Below, piece by piece: positions 1,549 through 50,274 of a stretch of 64,000 bases of DNA. Under the pieces are notes generated by a model. The model had not been told where the DNA came from and searched no databases. It worked only from the letters and a program-made list of their open reading frames with translations. Positions within the stretch are counted from its first letter, which is position 1; each line of letters starts with the position of its first letter. The DNA comes from an uncultured Pseudomonadales bacterium (GTDB lineage Bacteria; Patescibacteriota; Microgenomatia; UBA1400; PJMF01): contig CAZFRD010000001.1 of the NCBI GenBank assembly GCA_964521215.1, positions 59,210 through 123,209 on the forward strand, written 5' to 3'. The translations under genes were made by a program, and so were the position numbers.

Positions 1549-3549
1549 ATGACGGAAAATACGGGATCTCAATTTCTTGGTGAGCGTTATCCAAGACTTG
1601 CGAAAAGCTCAGAAGTTACTGCAGCAGTAGCACGAACGAAAGCTCGCACTGGAAAAACAATTATAAAAGATCCAGATGAAAGAATTCAAAATTATCTTGG
1701 CAGGTTTAGAGAAATTGTTGAACGCAGCGATCCGCAAGCAAAGGCTCGGGGAATTGTAGCTCTTAAAAAGATTCTAGTCGATCGGTATGTAGTACGAGTA
1801 GAAGATATTCCAAATAGTTATTGGCAGGCACAACTGCGAGTTGTGAGGAATCGAGGAGAATTTGGAGACTGGCAAAACTTACCAGAAGAAGAAGTACTAA
1901 AACTTAAACAAGAACATCTTGCTCAATCTAAAGAAGACCAACAAGGAAGTATCGAAGAATGGATTGATTATCTTGCGTCAGATAGATCTTCATATTTGCC
2001 TGACTATCTAAAATATTGGGTGTTTGCTGGAATGCTTAAGCTTGAAAGATATGAAAAAGCTGAAAAAAACCAACATGGAACAGTTATTAAGCAGGGAAGA
2101 TTTCCTGAGCGTCCTACAGGAAGGCAGCGCACAATTAAGATGTTTCCTGAAGTGAACGAAAGCGGACTCAAGTTCATCGCTTCTGCATACAAGCAACAAA
2201 CGGAAGGAAAAAATATTTACTGGGGATATAACCAGGATATTCCTGCAGATGTTAGACAAACTTTTCTTGACGCTCTTAAGAGGAAAGATTTCCGTGCAGC
2301 ATATGGATGGGTACAAGAACATATTCCTCCAATTACCGATGAAGAAATGCAAATAACAGAGGGCAGAAATTGTGGTTGGGTAACTTTTTCCAAAGATCTA
2401 GGTCATACAGGTCGAGATGTAGCAGTAACACTTGCGGGCAAGGGAACTGGCTGGTGCATTGCGGGCCGCGAAACCGCCCAAGGTAACTATCTAGATCAGG
2501 GAGCAAAACTTCACATATATTACACGCGCGACAAAGATGATAAACAAGCAAACCCTCGTGTAGGAATTGTAGAAATGGGAGGCAAGGTCACTGAGGTCAG
2601 AGGCATAGAATGGGAAGAAAATATTGACGATTATATTAAACCCACAGATGTGATCGAAAAAAAATTGAAAGAACTTCCTGGCGGTGAGGGATTTTTTGAA
2701 ACAGATGTAGATACTAAATATCTAACAGCCATTGATCAGAAGATGCATTGCAATGAGCCATTAAAAAGAGAAGAGTTAATTTTCCTTTATGAGATAGACA
2801 AACCTATTAAATATTTTGGCTACCAACGTGACCCTAGAATCGCTGAACTTCGGGCTCGACGGGATCCAATAGAGGATGCGCCTGTCGTTCTTGACTGTGA
2901 TCCAGGAGAGATTGCTTGGAATCGTCATGAGGTTTCTACTCATACCAAGGCATACATAGGGCCACTCTTCCCTGGAATTTTTGAAGAGTTTAGTGGTTTA
3001 GAACATATCTATACTTCTTTCCCTGAAGGAAAAATTACAGGAGATGAAGTAGTCATTGGTACTAAAGATAGGAAAGAGCTTCTAGAAGCCATGAAGAAGC
3101 AAGGAATTGATACTAGCACATATGCACAGGAAATGATTGAAAGTCCTGATTTTATGCCTACTCAAAGTCGCTTGAGTGGTATCCAAAGACTCTTTAAGGG
3201 AGAAGGATCGCAAACCGCTAAAACAGTTGATGTCATTCGATTAAAAGTGCGAGATTTTGGATTTACCAATTACCCCACCACTACTGAGTTGTTTGCCAAA
3301 GCAGAAGAGTTTGGCTTAGAACTCTGTCCAGCTGAAGTTGGTCCGCAATACCGTTTGCAACAAACTGACCAACCAATGAATGATTGGTTTTATATTGGCA
3401 TGAAACCGCTTGTCGCGTCCGGCGATCCTAGTGTGTTCACGCTCGGACGCTATGGCGATGGCCTGTGGCTCGACATCAGCTGGGCGAGACCAGACAGTCG
3501 TTGGCCTCTAGATGGCGAGTTTGTGTTTCGTTTTCGCAAGAATTCTTAG
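1549..3549 (+). CDS. DGR target protein (variable protein); VR occupies the C-terminal ~45 codons
   Basis: 666-aa ORF. Its 3' end (3405..3540) is a near-copy of a downstream repeat and differs almost only where the downstream copy has adenine. No obvious signal peptide, and the N-terminal region is not recognised. C-terminal tail reads ...MKPLVASGDPSVFTLGRYGDGLWLDISWARPDSRWPLDGEFVFRFRKNS. Confidence 0.7.
   Translation: MTENTGSQFLGERYPRLAKSSEVTAAVARTKARTGKTIIKDPDERIQNYLGRFREIVERSDPQAKARGIVALKKILVDRYVVRVEDIPNSYWQAQLRVVRNRGEFGDWQNLPEEEVLKLKQEHLAQSKEDQQGSIEEWIDYLASDRSSYLPDYLKYWVFAGMLKLERYEKAEKNQHGTVIKQGRFPERPTGRQRTIKMFPEVNESGLKFIASAYKQQTEGKNIYWGYNQDIPADVRQTFLDALKRKDFRAAYGWVQEHIPPITDEEMQITEGRNCGWVTFSKDLGHTGRDVAVTLAGKGTGWCIAGRETAQGNYLDQGAKLHIYYTRDKDDKQANPRVGIVEMGGKVTEVRGIEWEENIDDYIKPTDVIEKKLKELPGGEGFFETDVDTKYLTAIDQKMHCNEPLKREELIFLYEIDKPIKYFGYQRDPRIAELRARRDPIEDAPVVLDCDPGEIAWNRHEVSTHTKAYIGPLFPGIFEEFSGLEHIYTSFPEGKITGDEVVIGTKDRKELLEAMKKQGIDTSTYAQEMIESPDFMPTQSRLSGIQRLFKGEGSQTAKTVDVIRLKVRDFGFTNYPTTTELFAKAEEFGLELCPAEVGPQYRLQQTDQPMNDWFYIGMKPLVASGDPSVFTLGRYGDGLWLDISWARPDSRWPLDGEFVFRFRKNS
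3405..3540 (+). repeat. DGR variable repeat (VR)
   Basis: 136 nt aligned without gaps to 3906..4041. There are 21 mismatches; at 18 of them the TR base is A and the VR base is G, C or T. A fully conserved GC-containing 3' segment (gcgagtttgtgtttcgttttcg) is IMH-like. Confidence 0.8.
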
Positions 3550-3905
3550 TTGCTTGAATTCTTGAAAAAGTGACCCTTTGAATCTATAAAACTATGATAC
3601 TAAATTTTTAAAATTTTTTAGTCTGTTCGGGTTTATTTTGTCTTTTATTTCTATGTCTTTTGCAAATATACTGACAGATGATTGTGTTCTATTGGGTGGT
3701 CATGGCTACCTGAAACGCAGTTGGCATTTGTATATTGAGATCATAAATGGAGAAATTCTTTTTGTGGAGGGAATATAATTTGTCTATAATAAAAAGAAAA
3801 CTTGGTGTGTCGTGCTTGTGGATTTCTATCCCAAATAAATAACAGCCTAATATTTCTTTTCGTCATATTGGCAGTGACTCTAGATGGCACTTCACACATA
3901 GTTTC

Positions 3906-4041
3906 ACCGCTTGTCGCGTCCGGCAATCCTAATGTATTCAAACTCGAACACAATAGCAATGGCCTGTGGCTCAACAACAACTGGGCGAAACCAGACAATA
4001 ATTGGCTTCTAGCTCGCGAGTTTGTGTTTCGTTTTCGAAAG
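3906..4041 (+). repeat. DGR template repeat (TR), non-coding template
   Basis: The TR copy is rich in AAC/AAT codons (ctc aac aac aac tgg; aat cct aat; gac aat aat), a hallmark of DGR templates. It sits between the target gene and the RT gene. The tracked ORF 3802..4089 covering it is probably not a protein. Confidence 0.8.
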
Positions 4042-4056
4042 TACTTCTTTTCCGCA

Positions 4057-4446
4057 CTATTCGTTAGTGCGGTTTTTGTTTTGAGATAACTCTATGTTTT
4101 TTCTCCACCCACCAAGCATTTTCCCCACATCGTTTAATTTAAAAGCGATTTCCTCATATTGTTTATGAGACAGTAATTTAGCTTCCCACGCTATTGACAG
4201 TAAAAATTTAAGTGAATCAAGTAAAATAACACAGCCTGTTACCTTTTTATATTTTGCTTCCTTTTCAGTAAAATAAGATGCATATGTTTTTTCCAATAGA
4301 TCTAAAAAGGTATTTTCTATTCTGGCACCTATTGTGTAGCGTGCTCCTTTAGGCATATGAGGAACAAATCGCAACCAAATCAAATAAGCCTCTTTGAGAT
4401 GGTAAACAACAGAGTTAGTGCTATAAGGAGTAGTCATTTTAATCAT
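4057..4446 (-). CDS. avd: Avd-like accessory variability determinant (four-helix-bundle, 23S rRNA IVS-protein family)
   Basis: About 130 aa. Its layout resembles Bordetella bAvd and the IVS-protein family: YHLKEAYLIWLRFVPHMPKGARYTIGARIENTFLDLL...LLDSLKFLLSIAWEAKLL...IAFKLNDVGKMLGGWRKN. It is encoded on the strand opposite to TR and RT. Start is ambiguous: TTG at 4485, or ATG at 4446 or 4437. Confidence 0.55.
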   Translation of the reverse strand: MIKMTTPYSTNSVVYHLKEAYLIWLRFVPHMPKGARYTIGARIENTFLDLLEKTYASYFTEKEAKYKKVTGCVILLDSLKFLLSIAWEAKLLSHKQYEEIAFKLNDVGKMLGGWRKNIELSQNKNRTNE

Positions 4447-5417
4447 GTCTATGACAATATCATCTCTTTTGATAATTTGCTCCAATCTTGGAAGGATTTT
4501 TTAAATGGAAAAAGAAAGCGCAAAGATGTCATCTTATTTTCCCTAAATTTGATGGATAACATTTTGCAACTTCATCAGGATCTCTTAAACAAAACCTATC
4601 ATCATGGTTTTTATCAGGCTTTAAAATCAATGATCCAAAACCAAGAGATATTCACAAAGCTGAGGTAAAGGACAGGCTAATTCATCACGCAATTTACAGG
4701 ATTCTGTATCCATATTTTGATAAAAAATTTATTTTTGATTCATATTCTTGTCGAAAAGGTAAAGGCACACATCGAGCAATTCAGCGTTTTGTAACATTTA
4801 GCAGAAAAGTTAGCAAAAACAATACCCGCACAGCCTGGGTGCTAAAGTGCGATATTCAAAAATTTTTTGCCAATATAGATCACGATCTGCTCAATCAAAT
4901 TTTAGCTCAGCACATTGATGATCCTGATGCACTTGAGCTATTAAGAGAGGTTATCGGCAGTTTTCGAATTAACCCGTGTGTGTCAGTTGGTTTACCACTG
5001 GGAAATTTAACAAGCCAACTTTTGATAAATATTTACATGAATGAATTTGATCAGTTTGCAAAGAGAACCTTAAAAGCAAAATACTACATCCGTTATGCTG
5101 ATGACTTTGTTTTTCTCCACGAAGACAAACACACTTTGGTTGCTATGGTTCCTCAAATCGAATCTTTTTTGAAGGACAAATTAAAATTGGCTCTTAATCA
5201 GCGCAAAGTCTCTATCAAGACACTTAACTCTGGTATCGATTTTTTAGGATGGGTTAATTTTCCTCATCATCGAGTATTGCGTACAACCACAAAAAGAAGA
5301 ATGTTTCGCAAATTACAAAAAAATCATAGCAGAGAGACTCTTGCGTCGTATTTAGGATTGCTAAGTCACGGCAATGCTTATAAATTAAGATGCAGCATAT
5401 TAAGCAACAATTTTTAG
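4357..5417 (+). CDS. DGR-type reverse transcriptase (frameshifted at ~4620; start uncertain)
   Basis: Two frames (4357..4668 and ~4590..5417) together align with the Bordetella Brt RT. Matching segments include ISFDNLLQSWKDFLNGKRKRK, YHHGFYQA|FKINDPKPRDIHKAEVKDRLIHHA, SYSCRKGKGTHRAIQRF, VGLPLGNLTSQLLINIYMNEFD, IRYADDFVFL and GIDFLGW. The frame change occurs in a T-run (gcTTTaaaa) that also forms a U_UUA_AAA heptamer. The alignment shows that no residues are lost across the junction. Possible starts are ATG 4357, ATG 4399 or TTG 4477; the first two overlap the avd 5' end. Confidence 0.85.
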
Positions 5418-5877
5418 GGAAAACGGACTTTCAGTTGTTTGCCTCATTGACGTTGATATTATTAGCAAGCTATATGCATGATAGTAATCAGAGTAGAGCC
5501 ATCTGTGGCACTGCATGGCTTTATTCGCTCGCAGTTCCATCTACCTCCTTACTTGGTTTTTATTGACCACCCCTGGGGTGGGGGGGGTTCCATCACAGCA
5601 GACATGCAATCATTACACAAAAAAAGAGATAAAAGTTCTCACCGAGAGAAAAATCTCATGCGAAATTAGGCTGAAAACTAGTTTTGAAGCTAGAATTAGA
5701 GATCATACTTGAGGTAAAATAAGTTCTGATATAGTCAATTAGTGCCATCACAACCAGCTGGCAAATCAAACAGTTCATGACGAGCGACGGATGAGAAGTC
5801 AACATGGTCTTTTTCGACTAGGTTATCCTGTTTGGCGAGACCAAATGGGAAATCCTAGCGAGGCATCACCAACCTGT

Positions 5878-7866
5878 TTACTCAAACACGGGACGTGCAT
5901 CTTGTAGTTTTTTGTAATCATCGGGGAACATTTCCTCGATTGCCTTCAGCGCTTTAGCTCTTTCATTTGCATAAAAGACATCAAGTTTGGCGTAAAATTC
6001 TTGATTTAACTCAATCTCCATCAATTGTGCTAGATTGACCGCCATCACCGCAAAAGTGGCATTACGAGAGTTCACCAAACCTCTAAAAGTTATCAATCTA
6101 GCGCGATTGATCTCTGTTTCTCGTCCACTAGCCGTATCACCAAACAAATCATCTAGCTGATCAAAAGCATTGGTAAATTGTTTGTTTGCTTTAATGGCCT
6201 TCCAGCCGGATTCTGAATTAAGCTTTTCTTGTTGAAACGCTTGAACAACTCTGTCATCAATCAATTGATTATGTAGAAGATCCACAAATAGCGCATCAGC
6301 ACCCTTCACAATCTTACTCCATAAAGCACGTTGCTTTTCAGTAAAGTTAGCAAACACCGAGCCACCGTTGAGTACGCCATACAGAGCATTAAACCATTCG
6401 TTGGGACCGGTGGGCATTGTCAACAAATTGAAAGTACCAACTTGAGGCAACATTAGCGGTGCCTCACCAGATTTAACTGCCTCAACCAATACCACTTGTT
6501 CAAGTTGAAGTTTAAGCTGGGTAGTGATGGTAATATCATTAGTTCGGAGTAAAATAATTTTTCCCCTATTTTCCTTAACTTGTTCGATGATTTTCTCAAA
6601 TGAGTTCTCTGCAGTTACCGTAATTCTTACGACATCTGATTGATCTTTATCTAATTCATTGCTCAAACCTTCTATTTTTTTATCTGAATGTTCACCAGTG
6701 AAGAGAAGTAGAGTATAAGGCGAATTTTGGTGAGTTTTTTGATAAGTTCTAAAATGATCAACCATTGTCGCTAACTCTTCCATGTTGGATCCATTGCCTG
6801 AGGTTGATCCCATTATCCATCGGTCAGTTTTCGTATCTTTCCATTTGGCCACCACTTCTTTTTTATTCATGACATCGGCAATCGTGCCGGCCGCATAAGC
6901 TTCAATGCCATAATATTTTTTCATGACTTTGGCCACTAGTTTGCTGGGCGCCAACATTGGCGCACCATGAGTAATTTCTTCAATCAGCAACAAAGGATTA
7001 AATTTTAGAAACTTAAAGATATAGCCTGGATCGACAGGCATGGTTACCAATGCTAACACCTGGCCCAATTTTTTGAAAAATCTGCTCACACGACGCATAG
7101 TGGCGGGGTGAGAACTAAAGGCAAAATTGACGCCCAACTGAGCTCTAATTCTCTCAACTTCTTGACCCATTTCCTTGTCGAATAGTTCGTATTCTAATGA
7201 TGAAAATAATTTAAGTAATCTTCTAGCTAACCATGGGTGAGTACGCAAATACTGTTCAAATGGAGATTCTGACTCAGATTCATCTACCTTGACATTATTG
7301 GTAATGTACTTGATCAGTATTTTTCTTACGTAACCTTTGGGATCGTCAGAAAATTTCTTCGGAATTAAACCCAACTCATCTAAGTGGTCGATAATATCTA
7401 GCTCGTTTTGAACGGCAGAATGGGCATGTCTTTTTACCTCAAAACCTTTGCTAGCTTTGCCCGTGACGATATTTGCCGAAAATACGTAGGTCACTTTGCG
7501 AAAGATTTTAACAACAGCATTAACAAACGCTTGGGTTTCAAAACCATGACCCCAACCTGCCTCAACCAGTTCGCCGGCAGCGATTATGCGATTGATTGCC
7601 TCATCAAGTAATTTTGAGTCACCAAAGATTTCTTTAAATGCTTCTAGGTATTCGATTGCTAAAGGAGGGGGTTCGTCTTCAGGATTAGGATTGTATCGCA
7701 ACAGTCCATGTTGGACCTCATTTCCAACTCTGATTCTTCGGAAAAGGTCTTTGAGACCATTTTTAACACCATTTCTGATAGGATTTTCATTCCACCGTGC
7801 CCGCTGTGGTATTTCAGGAGTCTCTTTTGTTCTACGCCATAGTGACATAGACCTATAATTATACAC
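5878..7866 (-). CDS. hypothetical protein (662 aa, soluble, no family recognised)
   Basis: Long uninterrupted ORF starting at GTG 7866 or ATG 7848. No P-loop, HTH or transmembrane segments seen. It is convergent with the DGR RT gene. Confidence 0.5.
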   Translation of the reverse strand: MYNYRSMSLWRRTKETPEIPQRARWNENPIRNGVKNGLKDLFRRIRVGNEVQHGLLRYNPNPEDEPPPLAIEYLEAFKEIFGDSKLLDEAINRIIAAGELVEAGWGHGFETQAFVNAVVKIFRKVTYVFSANIVTGKASKGFEVKRHAHSAVQNELDIIDHLDELGLIPKKFSDDPKGYVRKILIKYITNNVKVDESESESPFEQYLRTHPWLARRLLKLFSSLEYELFDKEMGQEVERIRAQLGVNFAFSSHPATMRRVSRFFKKLGQVLALVTMPVDPGYIFKFLKFNPLLLIEEITHGAPMLAPSKLVAKVMKKYYGIEAYAAGTIADVMNKKEVVAKWKDTKTDRWIMGSTSGNGSNMEELATMVDHFRTYQKTHQNSPYTLLLFTGEHSDKKIEGLSNELDKDQSDVVRITVTAENSFEKIIEQVKENRGKIILLRTNDITITTQLKLQLEQVVLVEAVKSGEAPLMLPQVGTFNLLTMPTGPNEWFNALYGVLNGGSVFANFTEKQRALWSKIVKGADALFVDLLHNQLIDDRVVQAFQQEKLNSESGWKAIKANKQFTNAFDQLDDLFGDTASGRETEINRARLITFRGLVNSRNATFAVMAVNLAQLMEIELNQEFYAKLDVFYANERAKALKAIEEMFPDDYKKLQDARPVFE

Positions 7867-35706: not shown

Positions 35707-36601
35707 TGCCCTAACTGTGACTACCATCATCCCCACTTATAACGGCAGAAAACTGCTAGAAAAAAATCTGCCTTCCGTCCTACGTTCATTAAGAAATGGG
35801 GATGAGTTAATTATCATCGATGATGCCAGCCAAGACGAAAGTTGCAATTGGTTAAAATATGGTTTTCACCTCACTCAGCAACGCAAACCAAATCTTTCAG
35901 ATAAGCATGGTGAGTTTGAGTTGTTTCAGGGATTTGTAGTATTGAAACATAAGAGAATTGCAATTACTTTAATTGAAAATGCTCGCAACCTCAGGTTTGC
36001 CGCTAGTGTTAACCGAGCGGTTGGGTTAGCAACAAAACCCTTGCTCTTTTTGCTCAACTCGGATGCATCGGTTCAACCAGATACAGTTGATTGTTTGGTG
36101 AAGGCATATCAGAATAACGCTCAGCCCATTTTTGCTATTGGTTGCTTGGAATATGAAGGCGAAATCAACCAAGACCTAAAAAGTTTACCTACGGCAGGAA
36201 AAAACAAACTTTGGTTTGAACGTGGCTATTTTATGCACAGCAAAGCTAGCACCGATGCCTCGGGCGAAACGGTCTGGGCGAGTGGGGGGAGCGCGCTGTT
36301 CAACCGCGAAAGATGGCTAGCATTGGGGGGATTTGACGAGCGTTTCGCCCCGGCTTATTGGGAAGATATCGATCTTTCCTATCGTGCTAAAAAGAAAGGT
36401 TGGCAAGTCTTGTTTGAAAGATCGGCCGTTGTTTTTCATCAGCATGAATCAACTAACCAGCGTGTATTTTCAGAATCGGAAGTTCAACAACTCAGTTGGA
36501 AACACGCCGCCTACTTTGTGCAGAAACATGGCTCTTTTTGGCAAAAGCTAGCTTTTGTCTTATGGCAACCATATTGGTTATGGAAAAGATCTCGCCAATG
36601 A
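35699..36601 (+). CDS. family 2 glycosyltransferase
   Basis: VTTIIPTYNGRKLLEKNLPSV...LIIIDDASQDES...FLLNSDA...YWEDIDLSYRAKKKGW. Its stop overlaps the next gene's start within the bases ATGA. Confidence 0.7.
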   Translation: MSDALTVTTIIPTYNGRKLLEKNLPSVLRSLRNGDELIIIDDASQDESCNWLKYGFHLTQQRKPNLSDKHGEFELFQGFVVLKHKRIAITLIENARNLRFAASVNRAVGLATKPLLFLLNSDASVQPDTVDCLVKAYQNNAQPIFAIGCLEYEGEINQDLKSLPTAGKNKLWFERGYFMHSKASTDASGETVWASGGSALFNRERWLALGGFDERFAPAYWEDIDLSYRAKKKGWQVLFERSAVVFHQHESTNQRVFSESEVQQLSWKHAAYFVQKHGSFWQKLAFVLWQPYWLWKRSRQ

Positions 36602-38193
36602 AAAACAAGCAATCATTAATGTTATTGTTCTTAGTCTTGTTAGCTGGAATAATTAGATTTTGGCAACTTGGTACCATACCTTCGGGACCCAACTGGGATG
36701 AAGCTGCGATTGGCTACAATGGCTGGTCGGTTTGGCAGACCAGAAGAGACGAGTGGTTGGAAAAATTGCCAACTTCTTTTCGCTCTTTTGGAGACTACAA
36801 AGCTCCGTTAGCGATATATCTTAATGGTTTGTTTACCTCACTTTTTGGATTAGAAACATGGGTAATTAGATTGCCTTTTGCCTTATCGGGAGTAATTGGT
36901 GTGGTGGGATTTTATTTTCTACTCAAGTCAATTTTTAACTTTTCACCCAAAGGGAGTACTTATCTTTCTTCTGCCTGGTTAGCGTTACTGGGTACTGGAA
37001 TGCTCACGATCTCTCCGTGGCATATTTTATTTACTCGAGCTGGTTTTGAAAGCGGCCTAGCCCTAAGCGAAGTCGTCTGGGCCACAACTTTGTTTTTATC
37101 TTCATTACAGCTGAAAAAGAAAAACTGGCAATACTTTTGCTGGCAAATTACTGCTGGAATACTATTTGCCAGCACTTTTTATACTTACCACAGCGCCAAA
37201 GTGATGGTACCACTTTTTCTTTCACTTTTATTTTTATTGCTCAGCCGCAAAAAGTTGATTGCAATCAAACAGGTTGTGATTTTTTCAGCCGGCGTGCTCA
37301 TCTTAATCATTCCATTTTTAATCGACTCATTATTGGGTGAGGGTCTCACTCGGGCTAATGTCACTATCTTCGCTCATACCCAATCATTGGCTTATCTTCC
37401 ACTATTATTGATTAAAAATTTGCTGGCTCACCTCAGTCTCTCGTTTCTCTTATTGGGTAAAGCTGACTCAATTCGTCACTCAATTGGTACGATGGGAGTA
37501 TTGTTTCCCACCACTGCATTTTTATTCGCCTTAGGATTGGTGGCAAGATACAAAAAAAACTATATATTTATTTGGTCTTTCGCCACAATTTGGGTTGTAG
37601 CGGGATTGGCACCCGCCATCATTGGGATTGAAGTCCCTCATCCCAATCGTGCCTTACTCGCCCTGCCAGGTTTCTTACTTTTTGCCTTACTGGGAATTGA
37701 CTTGATAACTGAAAACATCTCAAAACATACACGTCAACCCGCCAAGTACCTCAAAATATTTATTGCTAGTTTGGTCATTATTAACATCATTCAAGCTAGT
37801 TATTTTTTATCTCAATATTTTGGCGTTTATGCCAAGCAATCTAGCCCATATTTTCAAGATGGTTACCGGGAAATGTTTACTGAAGTTTGGTCTTACTACG
37901 ATGGTAAAGATGGTCGGCATTCTGTTGATCAAATTGTTATCACGAGCGAATATGGTCAACCGTATATTTACGCTCTTTTAACCAGGAAAATTTCCACTTT
38001 TCAGTACCACAATGGCGCATTGATCAACTTTATTTTCCCCGATGTAGTCCAGTTAAGCGATCTTGATCGGCCCAATGCTTTGATTGTAGCTGGTGAAAAA
38101 AGTGATCTAGTTAATCGCACGCAAGCTTTTAAAGTGATATATACCAAAGACGGTAAACCAAGATTTTGGTTGTTTGATACCGACCAACTTTGA
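36598..38193 (+). CDS. GT-C glycosyltransferase, GT39/PMT-ArnT-like (paralog 1 of 5)
   Basis: IIRFWQLGTIPSGPNWDEAAIGYNGWSV...FGDYKAPLAIYLNGLFTSLFGLETWVIRLPFALSGV, followed by about 11 transmembrane helices. Confidence 0.75.
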   Translation: MKNKQSLMLLFLVLLAGIIRFWQLGTIPSGPNWDEAAIGYNGWSVWQTRRDEWLEKLPTSFRSFGDYKAPLAIYLNGLFTSLFGLETWVIRLPFALSGVIGVVGFYFLLKSIFNFSPKGSTYLSSAWLALLGTGMLTISPWHILFTRAGFESGLALSEVVWATTLFLSSLQLKKKNWQYFCWQITAGILFASTFYTYHSAKVMVPLFLSLLFLLLSRKKLIAIKQVVIFSAGVLILIIPFLIDSLLGEGLTRANVTIFAHTQSLAYLPLLLIKNLLAHLSLSFLLLGKADSIRHSIGTMGVLFPTTAFLFALGLVARYKKNYIFIWSFATIWVVAGLAPAIIGIEVPHPNRALLALPGFLLFALLGIDLITENISKHTRQPAKYLKIFIASLVIINIIQASYFLSQYFGVYAKQSSPYFQDGYREMFTEVWSYYDGKDGRHSVDQIVITSEYGQPYIYALLTRKISTFQYHNGALINFIFPDVVQLSDLDRPNALIVAGEKSDLVNRTQAFKVIYTKDGKPRFWLFDTDQL

Positions 38194-38233
38194 TGTTTCA
38201 AAGTCGGAGCCGTTCCAAAACGATCTTTTTTTT
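38180..38233 (+). terminator. hairpin spanning the stop codon plus a ccgttccaaaacg hairpin and T8 tract
   Basis: ccgac-caa-ctttga-tgtt-tcaaag-tcgg, then gagccgttccaaaacgatc followed by tttttttt. Confidence 0.5.
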
Positions 38234-38308
38234 GATTCTCGATGAGAATATTTTACCCAAAAATCACAACTGTATTTTTATTAACATTTGAGAAACACTC
38301 TACTAATA

Positions 38309-38380
38309 AAAAATATGGTTTAGTGTAAAGCACGTCTCCAGACGGGGCCATGCTTTAGTGTAAACCCCCATCAAATAAAA
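38309..38380. repeat. intergenic imperfect-palindromic element, copy 2
   Basis: aaaatatggTTTAGTGTAAAGCACgtctccagacggggccATGCTttagtgtaaacccccATCAAATAAAA. The central 16 nt are the reverse complement of the copy-1 centre, while the outer flanks are in direct orientation. Confidence 0.6.
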
Positions 38381-38513
38381 AGCACGTAGCTTGGGGTAGC
38401 AATTAGCGATACTTCATAAGTCAGTTCAATAGTTTGCAGAACCATTAGTCTTTTTCTAGGATTTCTTTCTAATCAAACAAAGAAAATAACCGTTGGGAAT
38501 GGTATCCAAAAAG

Positions 38514-40058
38514 TTATTCGATCAAAAAATCACTACCACTTTCACCTTGATAAATATACCCAGTCGTATCTAGAGTAGCATCAGAGTTGCCGATCGTGCC
38601 AATAATGACTTGAAAGGGCACTCGACCAAAACGATGACTTTGTTGTTGGTATTGCGAATCGAGCTTAAAAAGAGCTACCTTGGAGTAAGCTAATGAATGC
38701 CGACAGGCAGGGAAGATATCCCAAGCGCAGATCTCTCGATTGTTACAGATATCAACCACCGTGGTGGCTGTTTCATCAATGGTTAAAGTAGAATATTGTT
38801 TAACGCCAAAAAACACATTATTGATAAAATCATCATCGTGGAAAATAAAGCGAATATTTTGCCCAGGTGATTTGGCTTGAATAAACTCAATTGTACTTTG
38901 TAACTCTGCCAAATCGTTATAGCTATGCCATTGACTAATATAGATTCCCGAAGAAAAAAACATCAAGCCAAATATGCTGAGAATGACAAACTTGGAGCGA
39001 GTGGCTGACATTAAACTCGCCAGAAAGACAAAAGGTAAAAAGAAAAGGGTGCTGAAAAAATAATCCAACTTATCTCCCCTGAAAACTCTGAGCATTATAA
39101 AAATACTGAAAAAATAGAACAAGATTATTATAAAAGAAAGATTCTTAGTTTTCCGATAATGTGCAATCAGGGAAAAGATTCCACCAAAGTAAATAGAGAG
39201 ACCAAAAATTGAATAAAGAGTCTCTTTGCCGAATAATACTCGGTCAAAAAATGCCGGAAAGTAGGTGAAAACATATGTTGGCTTAGAGATTCGTTCAAAA
39301 TACCTCGAATGTTCTTGAGTAAAGTAGTTCAATATCGCTCGGGAGTTGGAAAAATTAGAAGTAATTTCCGCATAGAAATATGGCAGTAAGATAAGAGACA
39401 TTATGATTATGCCACTCGCCCAAAATAGTAGTAGTCGCTGAGAAAAATTGTTTTTGATAGAGTAAATGAAACAAAAAGCAAGCAGGGGTAGTAAGACAGC
39501 AGCTTGATAATGAAACTGAAAAGCGACAATAAATGAAAAACAAGCTATTGGAATAAACCACAGCTGATGGTATTTAACTACTCGGATAGATGAATAGACA
39601 AGAAGCAAAGAGAAAAAAGGAATCATGTTGGGATTCCAGGCCGTCGTACCATACTGCAGGGGAATTGGTGCCACGATATATAACAAACTAGATAATGTTG
39701 CTAACTTGATACCAAATAATTCTTTAATAATCAGAAATAATAAGACCGGACTTAAGGCTTCAACTATGGTCACAACCCACTTCATGACCAGAGGATCATT
39801 GTTGGTGAATAGCGAAAAGATCACATGAATTTGGTAATAAAGTGGAGGCAAATAGAAATTGCCTATGCCCACTTTTGGCCCATAGTCAACTATGATCTGA
39901 TCAAATTTTATTCGTTGACTCATAAGCCATGAGTCTCGAGCAACATCTTGTCCAAACGAAATATGGGTAGAGGAGAAAATCAGGCGGGTGCTCAGACTGA
40001 GAATCAAGATGAGAAGGACTACTAGTGTATTACTGGTCTTGAGCTTGCTATGATACAT
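38514..40058 (-). CDS. polytopic membrane protein, GT-C-like candidate (unnamed family with D-x-x-R-D...WNP motifs)
   Basis: FGQDVARDSWLM...TAWNPNMIPFFSLLL with about 12 transmembrane helices. Related to 51171..52883 and 52904..54319. It is the only minus-strand gene inside the GT39 array. Confidence 0.45.
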   Translation of the reverse strand: MYHSKLKTSNTLVVLLILILSLSTRLIFSSTHISFGQDVARDSWLMSQRIKFDQIIVDYGPKVGIGNFYLPPLYYQIHVIFSLFTNNDPLVMKWVVTIVEALSPVLLFLIIKELFGIKLATLSSLLYIVAPIPLQYGTTAWNPNMIPFFSLLLVYSSIRVVKYHQLWFIPIACFSFIVAFQFHYQAAVLLPLLAFCFIYSIKNNFSQRLLLFWASGIIIMSLILLPYFYAEITSNFSNSRAILNYFTQEHSRYFERISKPTYVFTYFPAFFDRVLFGKETLYSIFGLSIYFGGIFSLIAHYRKTKNLSFIIILFYFFSIFIMLRVFRGDKLDYFFSTLFFLPFVFLASLMSATRSKFVILSIFGLMFFSSGIYISQWHSYNDLAELQSTIEFIQAKSPGQNIRFIFHDDDFINNVFFGVKQYSTLTIDETATTVVDICNNREICAWDIFPACRHSLAYSKVALFKLDSQYQQQSHRFGRVPFQVIIGTIGNSDATLDTTGYIYQGESGSDFLIE

Positions 40059-41768
40059 AATATGCGTAATTTCTCGATTGCTACAATCATTATCTTAGCA
40101 GTCGTTTTTCGTTTCTTCCAGTTGGGAAACCTACCTCCCTCACCTTATTGGGAAGAGGTGGCTCTCGGTTATGATGCCTATTCTATTCTGCAAACTGGTC
40201 GGGATCACCATGGTCATTGGTTTCCTATTGTGGCTTTTGAATCTTTTGGTGACTGGAAGCCCGGCTTTTATATTTACTCGGTTATTCCTAGCATTTTTAT
40301 ATTTGGCTTAAATACTTTTGCCGTGCGTTTACCATCGGCGATAGCTGGTATCGCCATTGTGATTGGTTCTGGCGTTTTGGCCAACTTGTTGTTTTTGACA
40401 AAAAAAACTGCCGACCAACCAGTTGAACAAACTGATCGCTGGTTGCCACTACTAGTCATGTTGGTAGCCGCAGTCGAACCCTGGGGGATTATCTTTTCTC
40501 GTGGAGCCTGGGAGGCTAACTTGGCCAGTGCGTTAATACTCTGGGCAATTATCTGTATCTTCCAACAAGCAAAATTCAATCAAAAGTCAAAGATGGCTGG
40601 CAATTTATTTTTTTCGGCGATACTGACAGCTTTGGCTATGTACACCTATCATGCAGCTCGGATTGCCGCCCCGCTAATGGTCGGGGCGGCATTTATTTTT
40701 CAAGAACTAGAAAATAAAACCATTTGGATCAATGCCAAACAACGAGCGAAACGCTGGCGACAACTAGTTGTGCCCATCATCGTCTTTATCTTGATGTTGT
40801 CACCACTCATAACCAATATTTTTACCAACCAAGTAACCAATCGTTTTGTCACTACCTCGATCTTTTCCAATCTAGAAATTATTATCCAAAGCAACCAACT
40901 GAAAGAAATTGCGGGCAACAACTTATTAGCTCGCTTGTTTTATCATCGATATTTATTATTTGCCAAAGAAATCTCCATTAATTTTGTCAAAAACTTTGAT
41001 CTGGGATATCTTTTCCTCCATGGTGATACCAATCCTCGTCACTCAATTCAGTATTTTGGCCAGTTCTTTCCACTTAGCTTGATACTAATTATTATTGGTA
41101 TGACGGTATTATTTTTTAAACATCGATCCAAAACTTTACTATTTTTGCTTTGGTTTATTGTCGGTTTACTGCCCTCTACTCTAGTAATCGGATCACCGCA
41201 TGCAGTCAGAACGCTGATGATTTTACCCTTTTGGTTCATCATTATTGGCTTAGGTTTGCATCGATGTATTGATTGGTTGTCTCGTGTTAATCAACCAAAA
41301 CAAACCATTGTAACGTTAGTTTTTTCTTTTGTTTTGATAGCGCAGATCAGCATCTTTTGGATCTATTATAGTCAGATCTATCCAGCTAAATACGAACACG
41401 AATGGCAGTTTGGTTATCAACAACTGGTATCAGAGGTCAATCAGTTGGCCACGGCGTTTCCCGATGATCAAATTTATATTACCAGAGAGCAGGGCAGGCC
41501 CGCCATGTACTATTGGTTTTTCTCTCAAACAGATCCACGCTTAGTGCAAGCATATGAAAAGACCGCTTACAAGGATCAAGGCGAATTTCTTCAATTTGGA
41601 AGACTGCATTTTATTGACAAAGCAGACCAAGTATCAACCAGCTTTGGCATCTTAGCCGCATCTCCCTCTTTTACTGCCGATGTGGGACTGGCTACCGATG
41701 GTGATAACGTAACTATAGTTGATTCATTCGGCAAGCCTATTTGGGTCGTCCAACATTATGAAAAATAA
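40050..41768 (+). CDS. GT-C glycosyltransferase, GT39/PMT-ArnT-like (paralog 2)
   Basis: VFRFFQLGNLPPSPYWEEVALGYDAYSILQTGRDHHGHWFPIVAFESFGDWKPGFYIY...AVRLPSAIAGI. Confidence 0.75.
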   Translation: MIHNMRNFSIATIIILAVVFRFFQLGNLPPSPYWEEVALGYDAYSILQTGRDHHGHWFPIVAFESFGDWKPGFYIYSVIPSIFIFGLNTFAVRLPSAIAGIAIVIGSGVLANLLFLTKKTADQPVEQTDRWLPLLVMLVAAVEPWGIIFSRGAWEANLASALILWAIICIFQQAKFNQKSKMAGNLFFSAILTALAMYTYHAARIAAPLMVGAAFIFQELENKTIWINAKQRAKRWRQLVVPIIVFILMLSPLITNIFTNQVTNRFVTTSIFSNLEIIIQSNQLKEIAGNNLLARLFYHRYLLFAKEISINFVKNFDLGYLFLHGDTNPRHSIQYFGQFFPLSLILIIIGMTVLFFKHRSKTLLFLLWFIVGLLPSTLVIGSPHAVRTLMILPFWFIIIGLGLHRCIDWLSRVNQPKQTIVTLVFSFVLIAQISIFWIYYSQIYPAKYEHEWQFGYQQLVSEVNQLATAFPDDQIYITREQGRPAMYYWFFSQTDPRLVQAYEKTAYKDQGEFLQFGRLHFIDKADQVSTSFGILAASPSFTADVGLATDGDNVTIVDSFGKPIWVVQHYEK

Positions 41769-43446
41769 AATACTTTTAGCAATCATTATTATAATTGCTG
41801 CTGGACTGCGCCTCTTTGATTTAGGATCTATTCCCATTGCCCTGAATCGTGATGAAGCCTCGCTGGGATACACCGCCTATTCCTTGTTAAAAACTGGAGC
41901 AGACGAATATGGTAAAAAATGGCCGTTAAATTTGGAGTCTTTTGGCGACTGGAAATTACCCGTATATACTTGGTTCACTATTCCCAGCGTTGCCCTGTTT
42001 GATCTTTCAGCTTGGTCAGTTAGATTACCTTCGGCTTTGGCAGGCATTGCGGCAGTGGGGCTAATTTACCATTTATCATTATTGCTAATCTCTCAGAGTC
42101 GCTACCGCTACCAGTTTGCATTACTGACGGCACTACTGCTGGCAATTTCACCCTGGCATCTCCACTTTTCTCGTCTGGCCTATGAGGCCAATCTCGGTTT
42201 AACCCTGCTGTTAGCAGGCATGCTCTTGCTGTTTAAATATTTTCGCCAGCCAAAAGGCGTGCTAATTATTTTGAGCGCCATGTTCTTTGGACTGACCATG
42301 ATTTGTTATCATGCCTTACAGTTAGTGACGCCACTAATCTTAGTGACAATCATTTTTCTATTTGCAAACAAATTAATTAAAAAACAAACAGCTCGCTTAA
42401 TCGTTTTGCTTGTCGCCAGCGCCTTTGTACTACTACCAATGATCTTTTTATCAACGGTAGCTACCCAACACAGCAACAATGTAAAATTATCAGGCATTTC
42501 TATTTTTGACAAAGAATCATATTTCCGCAGGTCACAGGCTAAACGCCAATATTTTAATAATGATCATTGGTTAATAGCAAAATACTACACCAATATTCCG
42601 CTCGAATTTATCCGTCAATTATTGGTGAATAGTACGACTGCTATCAATCCCGACTTTTTATTTATCAATGGCGCTGGTCATGGGTCGCACGATATCAGTG
42701 GTATCGGCAAACTTTATAGTGCGACCATACCTTTTTTGGTCTTGGGTTTAATGACAATTTTTAGCCGTAACTCTTTATTCAATCGTCAGGTAAGACTTTT
42801 TGTTTTTGGCTGGTTAATAATTGGCTTGCTTCCCGCACTAATTACTTGGCAATCAGCCCATGCCACTCGTTCATACGTTATTGTCATTCCCCTGATATTG
42901 ATCACAGCCCAAGGCATTTTTTGGCTATTTCAGCAACTCAAGAAGCAAAACCCCAAACTGCTCTGGGCGAGTCTGATATTTACATTCGTCGTTTTATTTT
43001 TTCAACTCGGTAGCATGATGATTACTTATTTTATTGTGGCACCACAAAGAGATAGCGAGAACTGGTCGTGGTATGCCCAAGACATGGTGAAGTTTTTGTC
43101 CTTGGCTCGAACGCAAGTCGATCACGTTTATGTTCAGGGTTACAGCTGGTCTCCATATATCTACTACTTATTTTATGCCAAAGTCGATCCACAGTACGCC
43201 CAAACTCATTTAAATCATTTGTCCGCTGATGTTGAGGGCTTTCGACACGTCAATCAATTCGACTCAATCGACTTTGGCGATGTGCCTTTTCAACATTTGA
43301 TTGAAGCGGGTAGTTCGTATGCGGTGTTTGCTCCCAAGAGTCAACTCCCCACTAATTTCAGTCAGGATCCGACTCAATTTGATTATTTTGAAGTATTAAC
43401 CAATCCAAATAGCAGGGAAACCTATGTGGCAGTCTTTAAAAAGTAA
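41758..43446 (+). CDS. GT-C glycosyltransferase, GT39/PMT-ArnT-like (paralog 3)
   Basis: GLRLFDLGSIPIALNRDEASLGYTAYSLLKTGADEYGKKWPLNLESFGDWKLPVYTW...SVRLPSALAGI. Confidence 0.75.
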   Translation: MKNKILLAIIIIIAAGLRLFDLGSIPIALNRDEASLGYTAYSLLKTGADEYGKKWPLNLESFGDWKLPVYTWFTIPSVALFDLSAWSVRLPSALAGIAAVGLIYHLSLLLISQSRYRYQFALLTALLLAISPWHLHFSRLAYEANLGLTLLLAGMLLLFKYFRQPKGVLIILSAMFFGLTMICYHALQLVTPLILVTIIFLFANKLIKKQTARLIVLLVASAFVLLPMIFLSTVATQHSNNVKLSGISIFDKESYFRRSQAKRQYFNNDHWLIAKYYTNIPLEFIRQLLVNSTTAINPDFLFINGAGHGSHDISGIGKLYSATIPFLVLGLMTIFSRNSLFNRQVRLFVFGWLIIGLLPALITWQSAHATRSYVIVIPLILITAQGIFWLFQQLKKQNPKLLWASLIFTFVVLFFQLGSMMITYFIVAPQRDSENWSWYAQDMVKFLSLARTQVDHVYVQGYSWSPYIYYLFYAKVDPQYAQTHLNHLSADVEGFRHVNQFDSIDFGDVPFQHLIEAGSSYAVFAPKSQLPTNFSQDPTQFDYFEVLTNPNSRETYVAVFKK

Positions 43447-45148
43447 AATACTTACCAAATCATTCATATTTTACTGCGCTATTATCTTTGGCATTGGCTT
43501 GCGCCTGATCCAATTTGGTCAAATACCGGTGGGCACCTATTGGGACGAGACGGCAATTTTGATTGATGCGACTACCGTGGCCGAAACTGGACATGATATG
43601 CATCGCAACTCTTGGTTGCAGGCAATCTTTCCCTCATATGGAGATTATAAATTGCCAGTTTATATTTGGTTGAGTAGTCTGGTAGTCAAAGTCATCGGCA
43701 GTCATGAAATTGCCGTCAGACTGCCTAGTTTGGTGGCAGGTTTGGGTACGATTGTTTTAGCGGCAGCCTTAGCGGGTGAACTAGCAAAATACTGGCCCAG
43801 AAAACAACGCCTGGTCTTCCAGTTGGCTGCCGCTAGTGTCGTATCGCTCTCATACTGGGCGATTCTATTTTCTAGAGTTGGCTTTGAGGGACACCTGGCT
43901 CAACTTTGGTTGGGTATTTCATTTTTGCTACTGCTCAAATCAAAGCAAAAAGCTATTTATTGGCCACTAGCTGGTTTATTTGGAGCTCTCGCTTTATTCA
44001 CTTATTACGCTACACGATTTATTTGGCCGGCGCTGTGGTTGCTGATGCTGTTACCAATCCTTTATCAAATGATCAGCAAATCAAATCAGCGCCGGTCGCT
44101 TGTGACCTCTCAGTTGCTGCCGGCAGTTTTATCATTCGCTATTTTTAGTCTGAGTTTATTGGTGATGATTCGCTCGCCGTTATATCCGGCGAGCGAACTT
44201 TTTCGACTCAGTTCTGACTCCATTCTCAATCAAGCGCCATTTGTGGCCCAAGCCAATTTGGCCCAACAAATAGAAGGGCCCACACTGATTGGCAGAGTAG
44301 TACTCCATCGACATATTTTTCAAGCTCAAGCCCTACTCAATCATCTGTCGGCCCATTTTTCTTTAGATTATTTATTTTTCCATGGCGACGCCAACCTGCG
44401 CCACGGCACGAGCCTGCATGGATTATTTCCCGTTTTTTTTCTACCTTTTCTTCTGCTTGGAATAGTCAGCCTTTTTAGACATCACAAAAAAGTCTTCATT
44501 TTCCTCATTTTTTGGTGGGTAATTGGCTTAATTCCTGCTTCGGTACCATATGAAGTGCCTCACTCATTGCGTTCTTTGAATAGTTTATTGCCATTATCCC
44601 TGATTTTTGCCTATGGTTGCTCGGTACTATTTTTGTCTGTCAACCGCACTGCTAAAATCGTACTTAAAATACTAATAGTTGGCGTCGGTTTTGAGTTAGT
44701 TGCATTTAGTTACTTTTTATTTACCACCTACCCCAAGCTGTCAGCTTCCGAATGGCAGGCGGGATACAAACAATTAGCTCAACATGCAATTCAGCACCAA
44801 GCTGACGTCAATAATCTTTGGATCAACTCGGGAGATGGCAGGTTTTACTTATGGTTGTTGGCTTACGGCAATCTGAGCACCCAAGAGATTCAGAAGCTAA
44901 ACTGGCAAAATTACCAACTCGCTACCATCGACAATATCAACCTGCAGGATTTCGTCTATAGTTATGAAGATCTACCTAATACTCCATTTGCCTTAGCGGG
45001 TCGCAGAAAAGAAATCCTAAGTAATTTAGCGATACTCAAACTGACACCGCAAGTGGTAGTACCAATTTATGACGCCAACCAACAGGAACAATTTATTGTG
45101 ACTTACTTCAACCTAAATCAGGAAAGAGCCATTGATGTTACAAAATAA
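43424..45148 (+). CDS. GT-C glycosyltransferase, GT39/PMT-ArnT-like (paralog 4)
   Basis: GLRLIQFGQIPVGTYWDETAILIDA...FPSYGDYKLPVYIWL...AVRLPSLVAGL. Confidence 0.7.
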   Translation: MWQSLKSKILTKSFIFYCAIIFGIGLRLIQFGQIPVGTYWDETAILIDATTVAETGHDMHRNSWLQAIFPSYGDYKLPVYIWLSSLVVKVIGSHEIAVRLPSLVAGLGTIVLAAALAGELAKYWPRKQRLVFQLAAASVVSLSYWAILFSRVGFEGHLAQLWLGISFLLLLKSKQKAIYWPLAGLFGALALFTYYATRFIWPALWLLMLLPILYQMISKSNQRRSLVTSQLLPAVLSFAIFSLSLLVMIRSPLYPASELFRLSSDSILNQAPFVAQANLAQQIEGPTLIGRVVLHRHIFQAQALLNHLSAHFSLDYLFFHGDANLRHGTSLHGLFPVFFLPFLLLGIVSLFRHHKKVFIFLIFWWVIGLIPASVPYEVPHSLRSLNSLLPLSLIFAYGCSVLFLSVNRTAKIVLKILIVGVGFELVAFSYFLFTTYPKLSASEWQAGYKQLAQHAIQHQADVNNLWINSGDGRFYLWLLAYGNLSTQEIQKLNWQNYQLATIDNINLQDFVYSYEDLPNTPFALAGRRKEILSNLAILKLTPQVVVPIYDANQQEQFIVTYFNLNQERAIDVTK

Positions 45149-46724
45149 ACCACTTTTACTTAGCTTGTTGGTCATATTTTTGCTGGGTTTATTTTTTCGG
45201 TTCTTTCAACTCTCCACTACCGCACCCATACTCAATCGTGATGAGGCGGCTTTGGGTTATAACGCCATGTTGCTCAAAGAGACAGGCAGAGACGAGTGGG
45301 GCATCAGTTGGCCGATTACGCCCAGATCTTTCGGTGACAGCAAGCTGATTGGCTACCCACTACTGTTAGTCGGCCTGTTTCAGTTTTTGCCCCAAGCTGA
45401 CTGGGTTGTTCGCTTGCCAGCCATCATTGCGGGCTCATTACTATCCATTCTAGTATATTTTTTTGCTCGACAATTAGGTGTAACCAAAAGTTTCGCTCTT
45501 TTAGCCTCACTGAGTATTGCCGTCAATCCCGTGTTCATCCATTTTTCCCGGTTTGCTTACGAAGCCATGGTAGCTTTGACGTATTTTGTCGCTGCCACTA
45601 CGTTAATCCTTTGCCCCACCAAGCAGTTCAAGCGCAGGCTAGTTTTTGACTTGGTGGCAGCGTTACTCTTTTTTGCCAGTTTGTTGACCTACAACACTCC
45701 ATTGCTATTATTGCCACTTTTGATTTTACTTATTCCAATTCAACGAGGAATGTTTCCCGTTAAGATCTGGCTGAGTTCAGTTGCGATTTTGAGTCTCACC
45801 TGGGTGATTGCACTAGCATTGCTGTTTCCCATGCTGGCGCAAAAAAGTGGCATTTCAATTTTTTCGGATCAAACATACATCCAAGCGTATCCACAGTTTC
45901 GTGCTTCATTTAACACCTTGCTCCGGCCCCTGTTGGGGAATCAATATATTTACTACGGCAAATCAATCCTGACACAAATGTTGAAAAGTTTTTCTGCTCA
46001 TTTTATCGTTACTGCCGGTGGCACCCATCCTTGGCACACGCTCAGAAATCATGGTCATCTCAGCTGGATCATCTATCTTGGTTTTCTCATCGGCATTATC
46101 TCTTATGGAACTAAACTCATTAGACGTGATCGTAGATTAAGCAAAAATAATCATTTTCTAATGCTTTTGTTGATTGGCTCATTAATTCCCGCCAGTATTA
46201 CGGTAGATGCACCCCATGCAACTCGGAGTTTATTATTTTTTGTTTTAGTGACTGTTATCGCCGTTTACGCTTATCAACAATTATCAGCTCATATTCACTT
46301 GTCACTACTGGGAAGATTTACAAAGCGACTTATCATATTGGGAATGCTTGCCACAACTCTCATTGGCGGTCTCTCTTTCTTCACCCAGTATCTAGAAAAC
46401 TATCCTGCCCAAGCTGCTCGGGTTTACCAAGCTGGTTTCGATCAAATAATTACTACTTTAAACAAACAATATCCCAATTCCAATATTGCAGTGGTAGATC
46501 CCGGTGGATTTCAGTATATATTGTTGGCTTGGTACGCCAAATATTCTCCTGCAGAATTTTTTCAAACAATAGTCAAACAACAACCCAACACAATTGGTTT
46601 ACAATATGGTGAAAGTCTCGGTCGCTACCATTTTATTATGCAAGCTTCAGATCAGTCACCGGTGGAGGATATCTTAGTATTTTGGAATGAGTCGACTAAT
46701 CAATGGCAGTACTTACGATCATGA
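45132..46724 (+). CDS. GT-C glycosyltransferase, GT39/PMT-ArnT-like (paralog 5)
   Basis: FFRFFQLSTTAPILNRDEAALGYNAMLLKETGRDEWGISWPITPRSFGDSKLIGY...VVRLPAIIAGS. Confidence 0.7.
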   Translation: MMLQNKPLLLSLLVIFLLGLFFRFFQLSTTAPILNRDEAALGYNAMLLKETGRDEWGISWPITPRSFGDSKLIGYPLLLVGLFQFLPQADWVVRLPAIIAGSLLSILVYFFARQLGVTKSFALLASLSIAVNPVFIHFSRFAYEAMVALTYFVAATTLILCPTKQFKRRLVFDLVAALLFFASLLTYNTPLLLLPLLILLIPIQRGMFPVKIWLSSVAILSLTWVIALALLFPMLAQKSGISIFSDQTYIQAYPQFRASFNTLLRPLLGNQYIYYGKSILTQMLKSFSAHFIVTAGGTHPWHTLRNHGHLSWIIYLGFLIGIISYGTKLIRRDRRLSKNNHFLMLLLIGSLIPASITVDAPHATRSLLFFVLVTVIAVYAYQQLSAHIHLSLLGRFTKRLIILGMLATTLIGGLSFFTQYLENYPAQAARVYQAGFDQIITTLNKQYPNSNIAVVDPGGFQYILLAWYAKYSPAEFFQTIVKQQPNTIGLQYGESLGRYHFIMQASDQSPVEDILVFWNESTNQWQYLRS

Positions 46725-47527
46725 AAATCAACTCTTGCCAGCTATCGGTAGTCCTTGCGATTTACAACGAAGCGCATAACTTAACTCGCTGTTTAGAGTC
46801 CGTCGCCAGCATCGCCGATGAAATCATTGTGGTCGATGGAAATTCAACCGATAATTCTGTAGCCATTGCTCGATCGTTCAAGGCAAAAATCATTTCTACT
46901 TCCAACAAAGCCAATTTTCACATCAATAAACAGCAAGCGATTGATGCGGCAAAAGGACAATTAATCCTTCAGCTTGATGCTGATGAGGCAGTCTCTTGGC
47001 AATTGGCCAAATTCATCAGCGAAATAAAGACCCAGCCAACCAAATATCAAGCCATTGCTGCTTGGTGGTTGATCCGAAAAAACTATTTTCTTGGTCATTG
47101 GCTAAAGAAAGGTGGGCAATACCCAGATCCGGTTATTCGTTTGTTTTGGCGAGGTAAAGCTCAATTACCGCAAAAAGATGTCCACGAGCAAATGCGAGTC
47201 AAAGGCATAATTGGTTGGGCAGAAGGGCACCTAGATCATTTTAGTACACCAACTCTAACTGAGTACGCAAGAAAAATGAACGCTTATACTAGTTTTAAAG
47301 CTAACCAACTGGCAACCGAGAAAATCAAGATTAATGTTCCTAACTTGATAAAATATTTTTTTTATTTGCCAACGCTGACATTTTTTTCATTACTAATTCG
47401 TCACAAAGGTATTCTTGATGGTTGGGCGGGCATGCTTTTTGCTGGACTCAGTAGCGCCCATTTTCCCCTACAATATCTTAAGTTATGGGAAATCTATGAA
47501 ACTCACAAACTCAAACATCAAAGTTAG
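46721..47527 (+). CDS. family 2 glycosyltransferase
   Basis: LSVVLAIYNEAHNLTRCLESV...EIIVVDGNSTDNS...LQLDADE. Its start overlaps the upstream gene's stop within the bases ATGA. Confidence 0.7.
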   Translation: MKINSCQLSVVLAIYNEAHNLTRCLESVASIADEIIVVDGNSTDNSVAIARSFKAKIISTSNKANFHINKQQAIDAAKGQLILQLDADEAVSWQLAKFISEIKTQPTKYQAIAAWWLIRKNYFLGHWLKKGGQYPDPVIRLFWRGKAQLPQKDVHEQMRVKGIIGWAEGHLDHFSTPTLTEYARKMNAYTSFKANQLATEKIKINVPNLIKYFFYLPTLTFFSLLIRHKGILDGWAGMLFAGLSSAHFPLQYLKLWEIYETHKLKHQS

Positions 47528-50242: not shown

Positions 50243-50274
50243 CCGTAATTGTTTGTCATTACAATAACTAATAT

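Follow-up and report, generated by a model that had tools for sequence, protein, structure and literature searches.

Probable inactivation of a CPR-type DGR by a recent one-base deletion in its reverse transcriptase gene

The DGR cassette

The window, that is, the whole stretch of 64,000 nucleotides analyzed here, contains a DGR cassette with the following features.

1549..3549, + strand: intact 666-aa target gene of the DGR, whose C-terminus contains the VR (reading-frame translation; synteny)
3405..3540, + strand: variable repeat (VR), 3' end of the target gene (repeat pair with the TR)
3906..4041, + strand: template repeat (TR), a 136-nt direct repeat of 3405-3540 with 85% identity
4052..4072, + strand: terminator-like hairpin and T-run, 3' of the TR (consensus scan only)
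4057..4446, - strand: accessory gene avd, 129 aa, intact (Pfam bAvd)
4399..4620, + strand: 5' segment of the reverse transcriptase (RT) gene, frame 1 (translation; 8000 homologous CPR RTs, up to ...Y.A)
4618..4626, + strand: junction with the site of a one-base deletion, GC[N] before TTT AAA ATC (comparison with the DNA of relatives)
4620..5417, + strand: 3' segment of the RT gene, -1 frame, from Phe75 to the stop codon TAG at 5415-5417, with motifs 1-7
4666..4668, + strand: stop codon TAA of frame 1, which ends a shortened product of 89-103 aa

The order of genes (HTH gene, target gene, TR, avd on the minus strand, and RT on the plus strand) recurs in the closest relatives, and syntenic target genes of 635-636 aa are found in the relatives L001, L003, and L088-L090. 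The VR ends 9 nt ahead of the stop codon of the target gene. Differences between the two repeats are mostly of the adenine type: 18 of the 21 mismatches fall at TR adenines (A-to-N) and three are located elsewhere, at 4007, 4013, and 4015, all three positions being A in the TR of a sister haplotype described below. The 666-aa target protein has no Pfam match, and neither does the neighboring 662-aa protein (5878-7866). A protein search with the C-terminal 149 aa of the target yielded 10 distant relatives with 39-58% identity; the target itself was not returned.

The accessory protein scores 54.4 bits with the Pfam bAvd model, above the cut-off of 40, and 63.2 with the NCBIfam equivalog DivGenRetAVD, below the cut-off of 80. 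Its exact 129-aa sequence belongs to a 32-member cluster at 90% that includes a Candidatus Woesebacteria protein. The avd gene is located head-to-head with the RT gene and overlaps the 5' end of the latter. Its start is either 4446 or 4437, and the 5' coding overlap with RT comprises about 48-90 nt (4357-4446 of the window). The N-terminal RT extension 'MRxNxxPxQISLFD/E', observed in 11 of 28 relatives, is the antisense of the Avd stretch 'YLIWLRFVPHM'; this conserved extension may be an antisense by-product and not the real RT N-terminus. The hairpin 3' of the TR (CCGCACTA-ttcgt-TAGTGCGG, then TTTTTGTTTT) shares sequence with the avd stop codon. Possibly, it acts as a bidirectional terminator setting the 3' end of the TR RNA.

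The cassette contains RT motifs of the DGR clade, an adenine-type TR/VR pair, a VR at the 3' end of the target gene, and Avd. The reading frame of the RT, on the other hand, is interrupted at 4619/4620. By descent the element is a DGR; as encoded, it is predicted not to be active.

The interrupted RT gene

Translation of the RT gene can begin in frame 1 at ATG 4399 (the nearest in-frame start) or at ATG 4357 (the farthest). The N-terminus, ...YDNIISFDNLLQSWKDFLNGKRKRKDV...NKTYHHGFYQA, is typical of a DGR RT, and the last homologous codon is that of Ala74 (gct, 4618-4620). Past Ala74, frame 1 continues with 15 unrelated codons, LKSMIQNQEIFTKLR, before it reaches TAA. The homologous sequence resumes in the -1 frame, which is open from 4560 (being preceded by TAA at 4557-4559) and from the ttt at 4620 reads FKINDPKPRDIHKAEVKDRLIHHA...; both frames are open over 4560-4665. 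This second frame contains LPLGNLTSQ, with SQ at 5013-5018, and YADD at 5094-5105. Direct reading thus confirms to the base the change of frame at 4618-4620 that was claimed in the original prediction.

The split RT matches the profile RVT_1 with an E-value of 4e-24, and the match to a group II RT model crosses the junction. When the two segments are joined, the best match among solved structures is Brt (PDB 8ub7; E-value 2e-43, residues 15-308). The alignment is gap-free at the junction, in agreement with the earlier statement that no residue is missing in comparison with Brt, and the alignment with the 28 closest relatives is also gap-free there. Because the joined RT can be aligned to Brt and to RT profiles without gaps, exactly one nucleotide is missing.

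The -1 frame contains no ATG, GTG, or TTG at 4560-4838; the first candidate start is GTG at 4839, past motifs 1-2. Therefore, the catalytic part of RT cannot be translated alone with motifs 1-2, and a split protein with separately made halves is ruled out. The N-terminal product of 89 aa (from ATG 4399) and a C-terminal fragment of 192 aa are on record in Logan assemblies, while the 103-aa product from ATG 4357 is not on record.

RT genes of related elements

A protein search found 8000 CPR relatives of the RT, the best full-length relative having 79% identity. For the analysis of the junction we used 200 relatives: 120 best protein hits, checked for motifs, and 80 genome loci that were recovered at the DNA level and thus are independent of gene callers. 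The RT is uninterrupted at the junction in all of them (120/120 proteins and 80/80 genome loci), as well as in 28/28 aligned relatives; in each of the 80 loci it forms a single tblastn segment in one frame. The Phe residue at the junction position is invariant in the 200 relatives and is also present in Brt of the Bordetella phage. Comparison with orthologous RTs, proposed along with the original prediction, thus speaks against a frameshift used for expression, with 0 of 200 relatives having an interrupted RT.

The window is located on an NCBI contig of 126,895 bp, and the genome nearest to it belongs to a MAG of Candidatus Woesebacteria (DAOQVB010000006.1). Contigs encoding an Avd with at least 90% identity represent the same relative with the 79% identical RT (DAOQVB01 and two ENA contigs), and the RT is present in all of them, so that they add no nearer sequence for comparison. 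An exact-pattern scan, with the junction either as in the window or longer by one base, gave no match in GTDB species genomes or JGI metagenome contigs. Likewise, when the repaired RT, beginning at either start, was looked up exactly among approximately 15 billion proteins, no intact allele was found.

The lost base and the slippery heptamer

At the junction, the window reads CAG GC- TTT AAA ATC, with a run of three T at 4620-4622. The three closest relatives have CAA GCC TTT AAA ATA (L001/L002 and L008) or CAA GCC TTT AAG ATT (L003/L004), and GCT TTT AAA is observed in 6 of 70 more distant genome loci found by a motif pattern. Judged from these sequences, the lost base is the wobble (third) base of the Ala74 codon, which may have been C or T. 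The initial suggestion of a T missing from a TTT(T) run is thus correct in that one base is missing, but a T4 origin is not required, as the closest relatives have GCC TTT.

The slippery heptamer noticed earlier is indeed located at the junction and in register: T_TTA_AAA at 4620-4626 has the X_XXY_YYZ phase relative to frame 1 and lies inside the overlap of the two frames. Once the base ahead of TTTAAAA is deleted, this string necessarily enters the X_XXY_YYZ register. Of the 70 intact genome loci in the motif-pattern set, 17 have the same string in frame, as plain Phe-Lys-Ile/Asn codons, and in the window it occurs 25 times compared to 47.5 expected from shuffles. The heptamer is thus a by-product of the deletion ahead of the conserved Phe-Lys codons TTT AAA. 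More generally, the mere position of a deletion can place a slippery heptamer where two frames meet.

No stimulatory signals were observed around the heptamer. By MFE folding compared with shuffles, without explicit pseudoknot modelling, the 101 nt from the heptamer (4620-4720) have an MFE of -8.1 kcal/mol and z of +1.84, with 195 of 200 shuffles folding at least as well, and the 54 nt after the heptamer (4627-4680) have an MFE of -3.9 kcal/mol and z of +0.91. The downstream stem-loop that was proposed as a further check on the prediction was therefore not observed as a stable structure. Direct reading also revealed no Shine-Dalgarno-like element 8-14 nt upstream of the heptamer.

Transcriptional slippage and phase variation are ruled out, since the runs at the junction, T3 and A4, are far too short; these processes are supported by runs of at least 7-9 nt.

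Reproducibility of the deletion

At the contig level, the NCBI contig and the Logan assemblies of two runs share the same gap, which is present in two haplotypes; the Logan contigs possibly were built from the reads of the deposited assembly, and so, although assembled independently, may not come from independent samples. The Logan contig L005 (SRR8893621, 1124 nt) is 100% identical to window positions 4372-5495, including the junction. The contig L007 (SRR9038830, 2 samples, 3362 nt) covers 3512-6878 with 35 differences and represents a second haplotype. It encodes an identical 89-aa stub and hence has the same one-base gap.

These observations weaken another explanation, an error of sequencing or assembly, in which the RT is intact and the consensus lacks one base beside a short run (GCC/TTT or T4). 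A single-base gap adjoining short runs, in a gene whose remainder is perfectly conserved, could arise in this way, and sequencing error has been raised as an explanation for apparent RT point mutations (Schillinger et al., 2012; PMC3521204). However, the gap is common to the NCBI contig and the Logan assemblies of two runs, the haplotypes being 35 positions apart; the runs are only 1-4 bases long; and no intact copy of this RT exists among the 15 billion proteins. Moreover, six suspicious pairs of adjacent same-strand ORFs elsewhere in the 64 kb show no sign of split genes, and thus the assembly is not full of indels. The pairs were tested by Pfam and included rmlC/rmlD, GT2/PMT_2, GT2/GT4, epimerase/unknown, and phosphorylase/131-aa ORF, the phosphorylase pair being also compared with PDB. 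An error of this kind is therefore unlikely.

Frameshifting as an alternative

If the deletion is real, the RT could still be expressed by ribosomal slippage at U_UUA_AAA. Tandem or P-site slippage would yield Ala-Leu-Lys-Ile, that is, a protein with Leu replacing the invariant Phe (200/200 relatives and Brt). Two versions of this scenario can be distinguished.

In the first version, slippage is adventitious: the deletion happened to create a shift-prone heptamer, and -1 slippage supplies a trickle of full-length Phe75Leu RT that keeps the DGR weakly active. In E. coli, loss of ribosomal protein L9 loosens frame maintenance. Microgenomates lack this protein (PMC7304191), and low-level 'compensatory' frameshifting after indels has been documented elsewhere (PMC5009743). 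On the other hand, heptamers without stimulators in E. coli cause frameshifting at only about 2-10 times the background of approximately 0.05% (PMC4066793), so that an efficiency well below 1% would be expected here, and the product would contain Leu at the invariant Phe position. The sister haplotype (L007) has lost the RT C-terminus and avd, that is, the element apparently is not maintained, and the TR/VR pair of the window contains three non-adenine mismatches. Overall, we regard weak activity by adventitious slippage as quite improbable. If it did take place, the deletion would be a 'dimmer' rather than an off-switch: diversification of the target would go on, but far more slowly. A DGR RT expressed by way of a frameshift would be without precedent and would represent a new throttle on targeted hypermutation.

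In the second version, the -1 frameshift is programmed, that is, selected for, and ensures low dosage of the RT, with both the stub and the full-length enzyme being made. A canonical X_XXY_YYZ heptamer is located exactly where the frames must join, the shift is present in both known haplotypes, and the rest of the RT seems to be under constraint. However, none of the 200 relatives is frameshifted, and the heptamer is explained by the Phe-Lys codons, being found in frame in 17 of the 70 intact relatives; the window has no excess of TTTAAAA. Most shuffled controls fold more stably than the RNA downstream of the heptamer, and the shifted product would have Leu at the invariant Phe position. The presence of the shift in both haplotypes adds little, as their RTs have no substitutions and differ only by a deletion at 5317, which makes their agreement uninformative on selection. 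The suggestion that programmed frameshifting regulates RT dosage thus is not upheld: the relatives are uninterrupted, no downstream structure is observed, and the product would carry the Phe-to-Leu change. It is a very doubtful explanation of the data.

Recent inactivation of the RT

Thus, of the possibilities raised originally, the evidence favors recent pseudogenization that switches the DGR off: the gap is reproducible, relatives are intact, and signals for frameshifting are absent. A genuine and recent one-base deletion that disabled the RT is most likely the explanation of the split gene. From the sequence data we infer both the loss of RT function and its timing.

The most likely scenario is as follows. 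This lineage has lost the third base of the Ala74 codon, directly 5' of the conserved TTT AAA. The deletion splits the RT into an N-terminal stub of 89-103 aa and a catalytic part without a start codon of its own. With no full-length RT, cDNA would not be made from the TR, and the 666-aa target gene would no longer, or hardly ever, receive mutagenized sequence in its VR by homing. The lesion is probably recent, as the window shows no other damage to the RT, and avd, the TR/VR pair, and the target gene remain intact there.

The state of the remaining RT sequence is consistent with a young lesion. With the 28 relatives as a reference, the repaired RT retains 84 of 85 invariant positions and 136 of 138 positions conserved at 90% or more. 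Both departures are Asp for Glu, and intact relatives show 2-12 departures. Since the repaired RT is as conserved as its intact relatives, the lesion is likely to be young; however, an undamaged remainder of the RT would be equally expected if the enzyme were still in use. In the window, there are no signs of relaxed constraint in the RT, and the TR/VR pair contains three non-A mismatches. The TR of L007 has two non-adenine mismatches, different from those in the window.

The sister haplotype has accumulated further damage. In the RT of L007, an A7 to A6 deletion at 5317 removes the conserved C-terminus SYLGLLSHGN. In avd, two one-base deletions at 4251 and 4258, with a net change of -2, truncate Avd. 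A further deletion, of 2 nt, is located at 4077-4078. This additional damage suggests that the shared RT frameshift may have come first and was followed by drift of the cassette. The differences between the haplotypes are distributed unevenly. The tract 3972-4294 (about 320 nt), which extends from the TR (3' part) into avd (3' half), contains most of them and is approximately 10% divergent, with 15 synonymous and 8 non-synonymous substitutions in the avd part, and outside it, in about 3 kb compared, the sole difference between the window and L007 is the one-base deletion at 5317. This mosaic pattern suggests recombination between related DGR cassettes, the tract having the appearance of an import. 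As the extra indels of L007 are partly located in this probably recombined tract, they do not provide a clean clock of decay.

Comparison of the TRs themselves (3972-4016 of the window and 461-505 of L007) reveals seven differing sites. Five of them are clustered at 4006-4016, where L007 has A at all five sites and the window has C, T, C, C, and G. This pattern could reflect either allelic divergence within the recombined tract or overwriting of the 3' end of the window TR by adenine-mutagenized cDNA or VR conversion.

In annotation, this DGR should be scored as (recently) inactive, and its RT is better described as a pseudogene with a frameshift than as a pair of genes or a case of recoding. 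DGR decay in CPR bacteria thereby gains one documented example, with two haplotypes at different stages.

Comparison with known systems

The DiGReF survey (Schillinger et al., 2012; PMC3521204) described DGRs with a clean TR/VR pair in which the RT had been cut short by a frameshift, a nonsense mutation, or insertion of an IS; its authors interpreted these cases as very recent inactivation or possibly sequencing error. As in these cases (e.g., Bacteroides sp. 9_1_42FAA), here the RT is truncated by an indel, the TR, VR, target, and accessory gene remain, and TR/VR mismatches are still almost all at adenines. Unlike them, the lesion considered here is observed in several assemblies and two haplotypes, the sister haplotype has decayed further, and the host is a CPR (Woesebacteria-like) bacterium. 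The present case is therefore most likely another inactivated DGR RT, of the CPR type, and the evidence for a real lesion is somewhat better here. Loss of the RT by a frameshift is an ordinary fate of DGRs that has been described already.

Among the DGRs of CPR/Patescibacteria, with thousands of RT members, the same cassette is observed, with a target of about 635-666 aa containing a C-terminal VR. The closest of these elements (DAOQVB010000006.1) has a 79% identical RT, and Avd is at least 90% identical to cluster members. The difference is that the base is missing only in this lineage, while every relative examined has an uninterrupted RT.

The BPP-1 DGR has a homologous RT with conserved Phe75, PKPR, SQ, and YxDD, as well as an Avd-family accessory protein. 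In both elements, TR and VR differ specifically at adenines and the target gene ends with the VR. It differs from the present element in gene order and orientation (here, avd is antisense and overlaps the start of the RT gene), in the target protein, and in that the RT ORF is broken here.

Finally, the junction resembles the -1 sites of dnaX and of orfAB in IS3/IS911, which also have an X_XXY_YYZ heptamer where the frames meet. In contrast to these sites, no stimulatory hairpin or pseudoknot is apparent from MFE folding, there is no upstream SD, and the arrangement is not conserved in homologs. Furthermore, the 0-frame product here has no plausible role, and the shifted product alters an invariant residue. 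In the literature, including a review of frameshifting (PMC5009743), we encountered no DGR RT for which programmed frameshifting had been reported.

Other features of the window

The RT gene is separated from a convergent 662-aa ORF by a non-coding gap of 460 nt (5417-5878). Within it, at 5567-5587, there is a G/C inverted repeat, CCACCCC / GGGGTGG, followed by a run of eight G, which is unusual at about 40% GC. Rfam and tRNA scans of the window, including this gap, gave no match. A neighboring 290-aa protein is not on record.

Further downstream, the plus strand contains seven tandem ORFs of approximately 530-585 aa at 36496-52883. Two of them were scanned: the ORF at 36496-38193 matches PMT_2, and that at 51129-52883 has no Pfam match. 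These ORFs are interspersed with genes for GT2, GT4, an epimerase, and dTDP-rhamnose (rmlC/rmlD, 24.8-26.4 kb). By its gene content, the region resembles a large gene cluster for glycosylation of the cell envelope, in which one family of paralogs has expanded.
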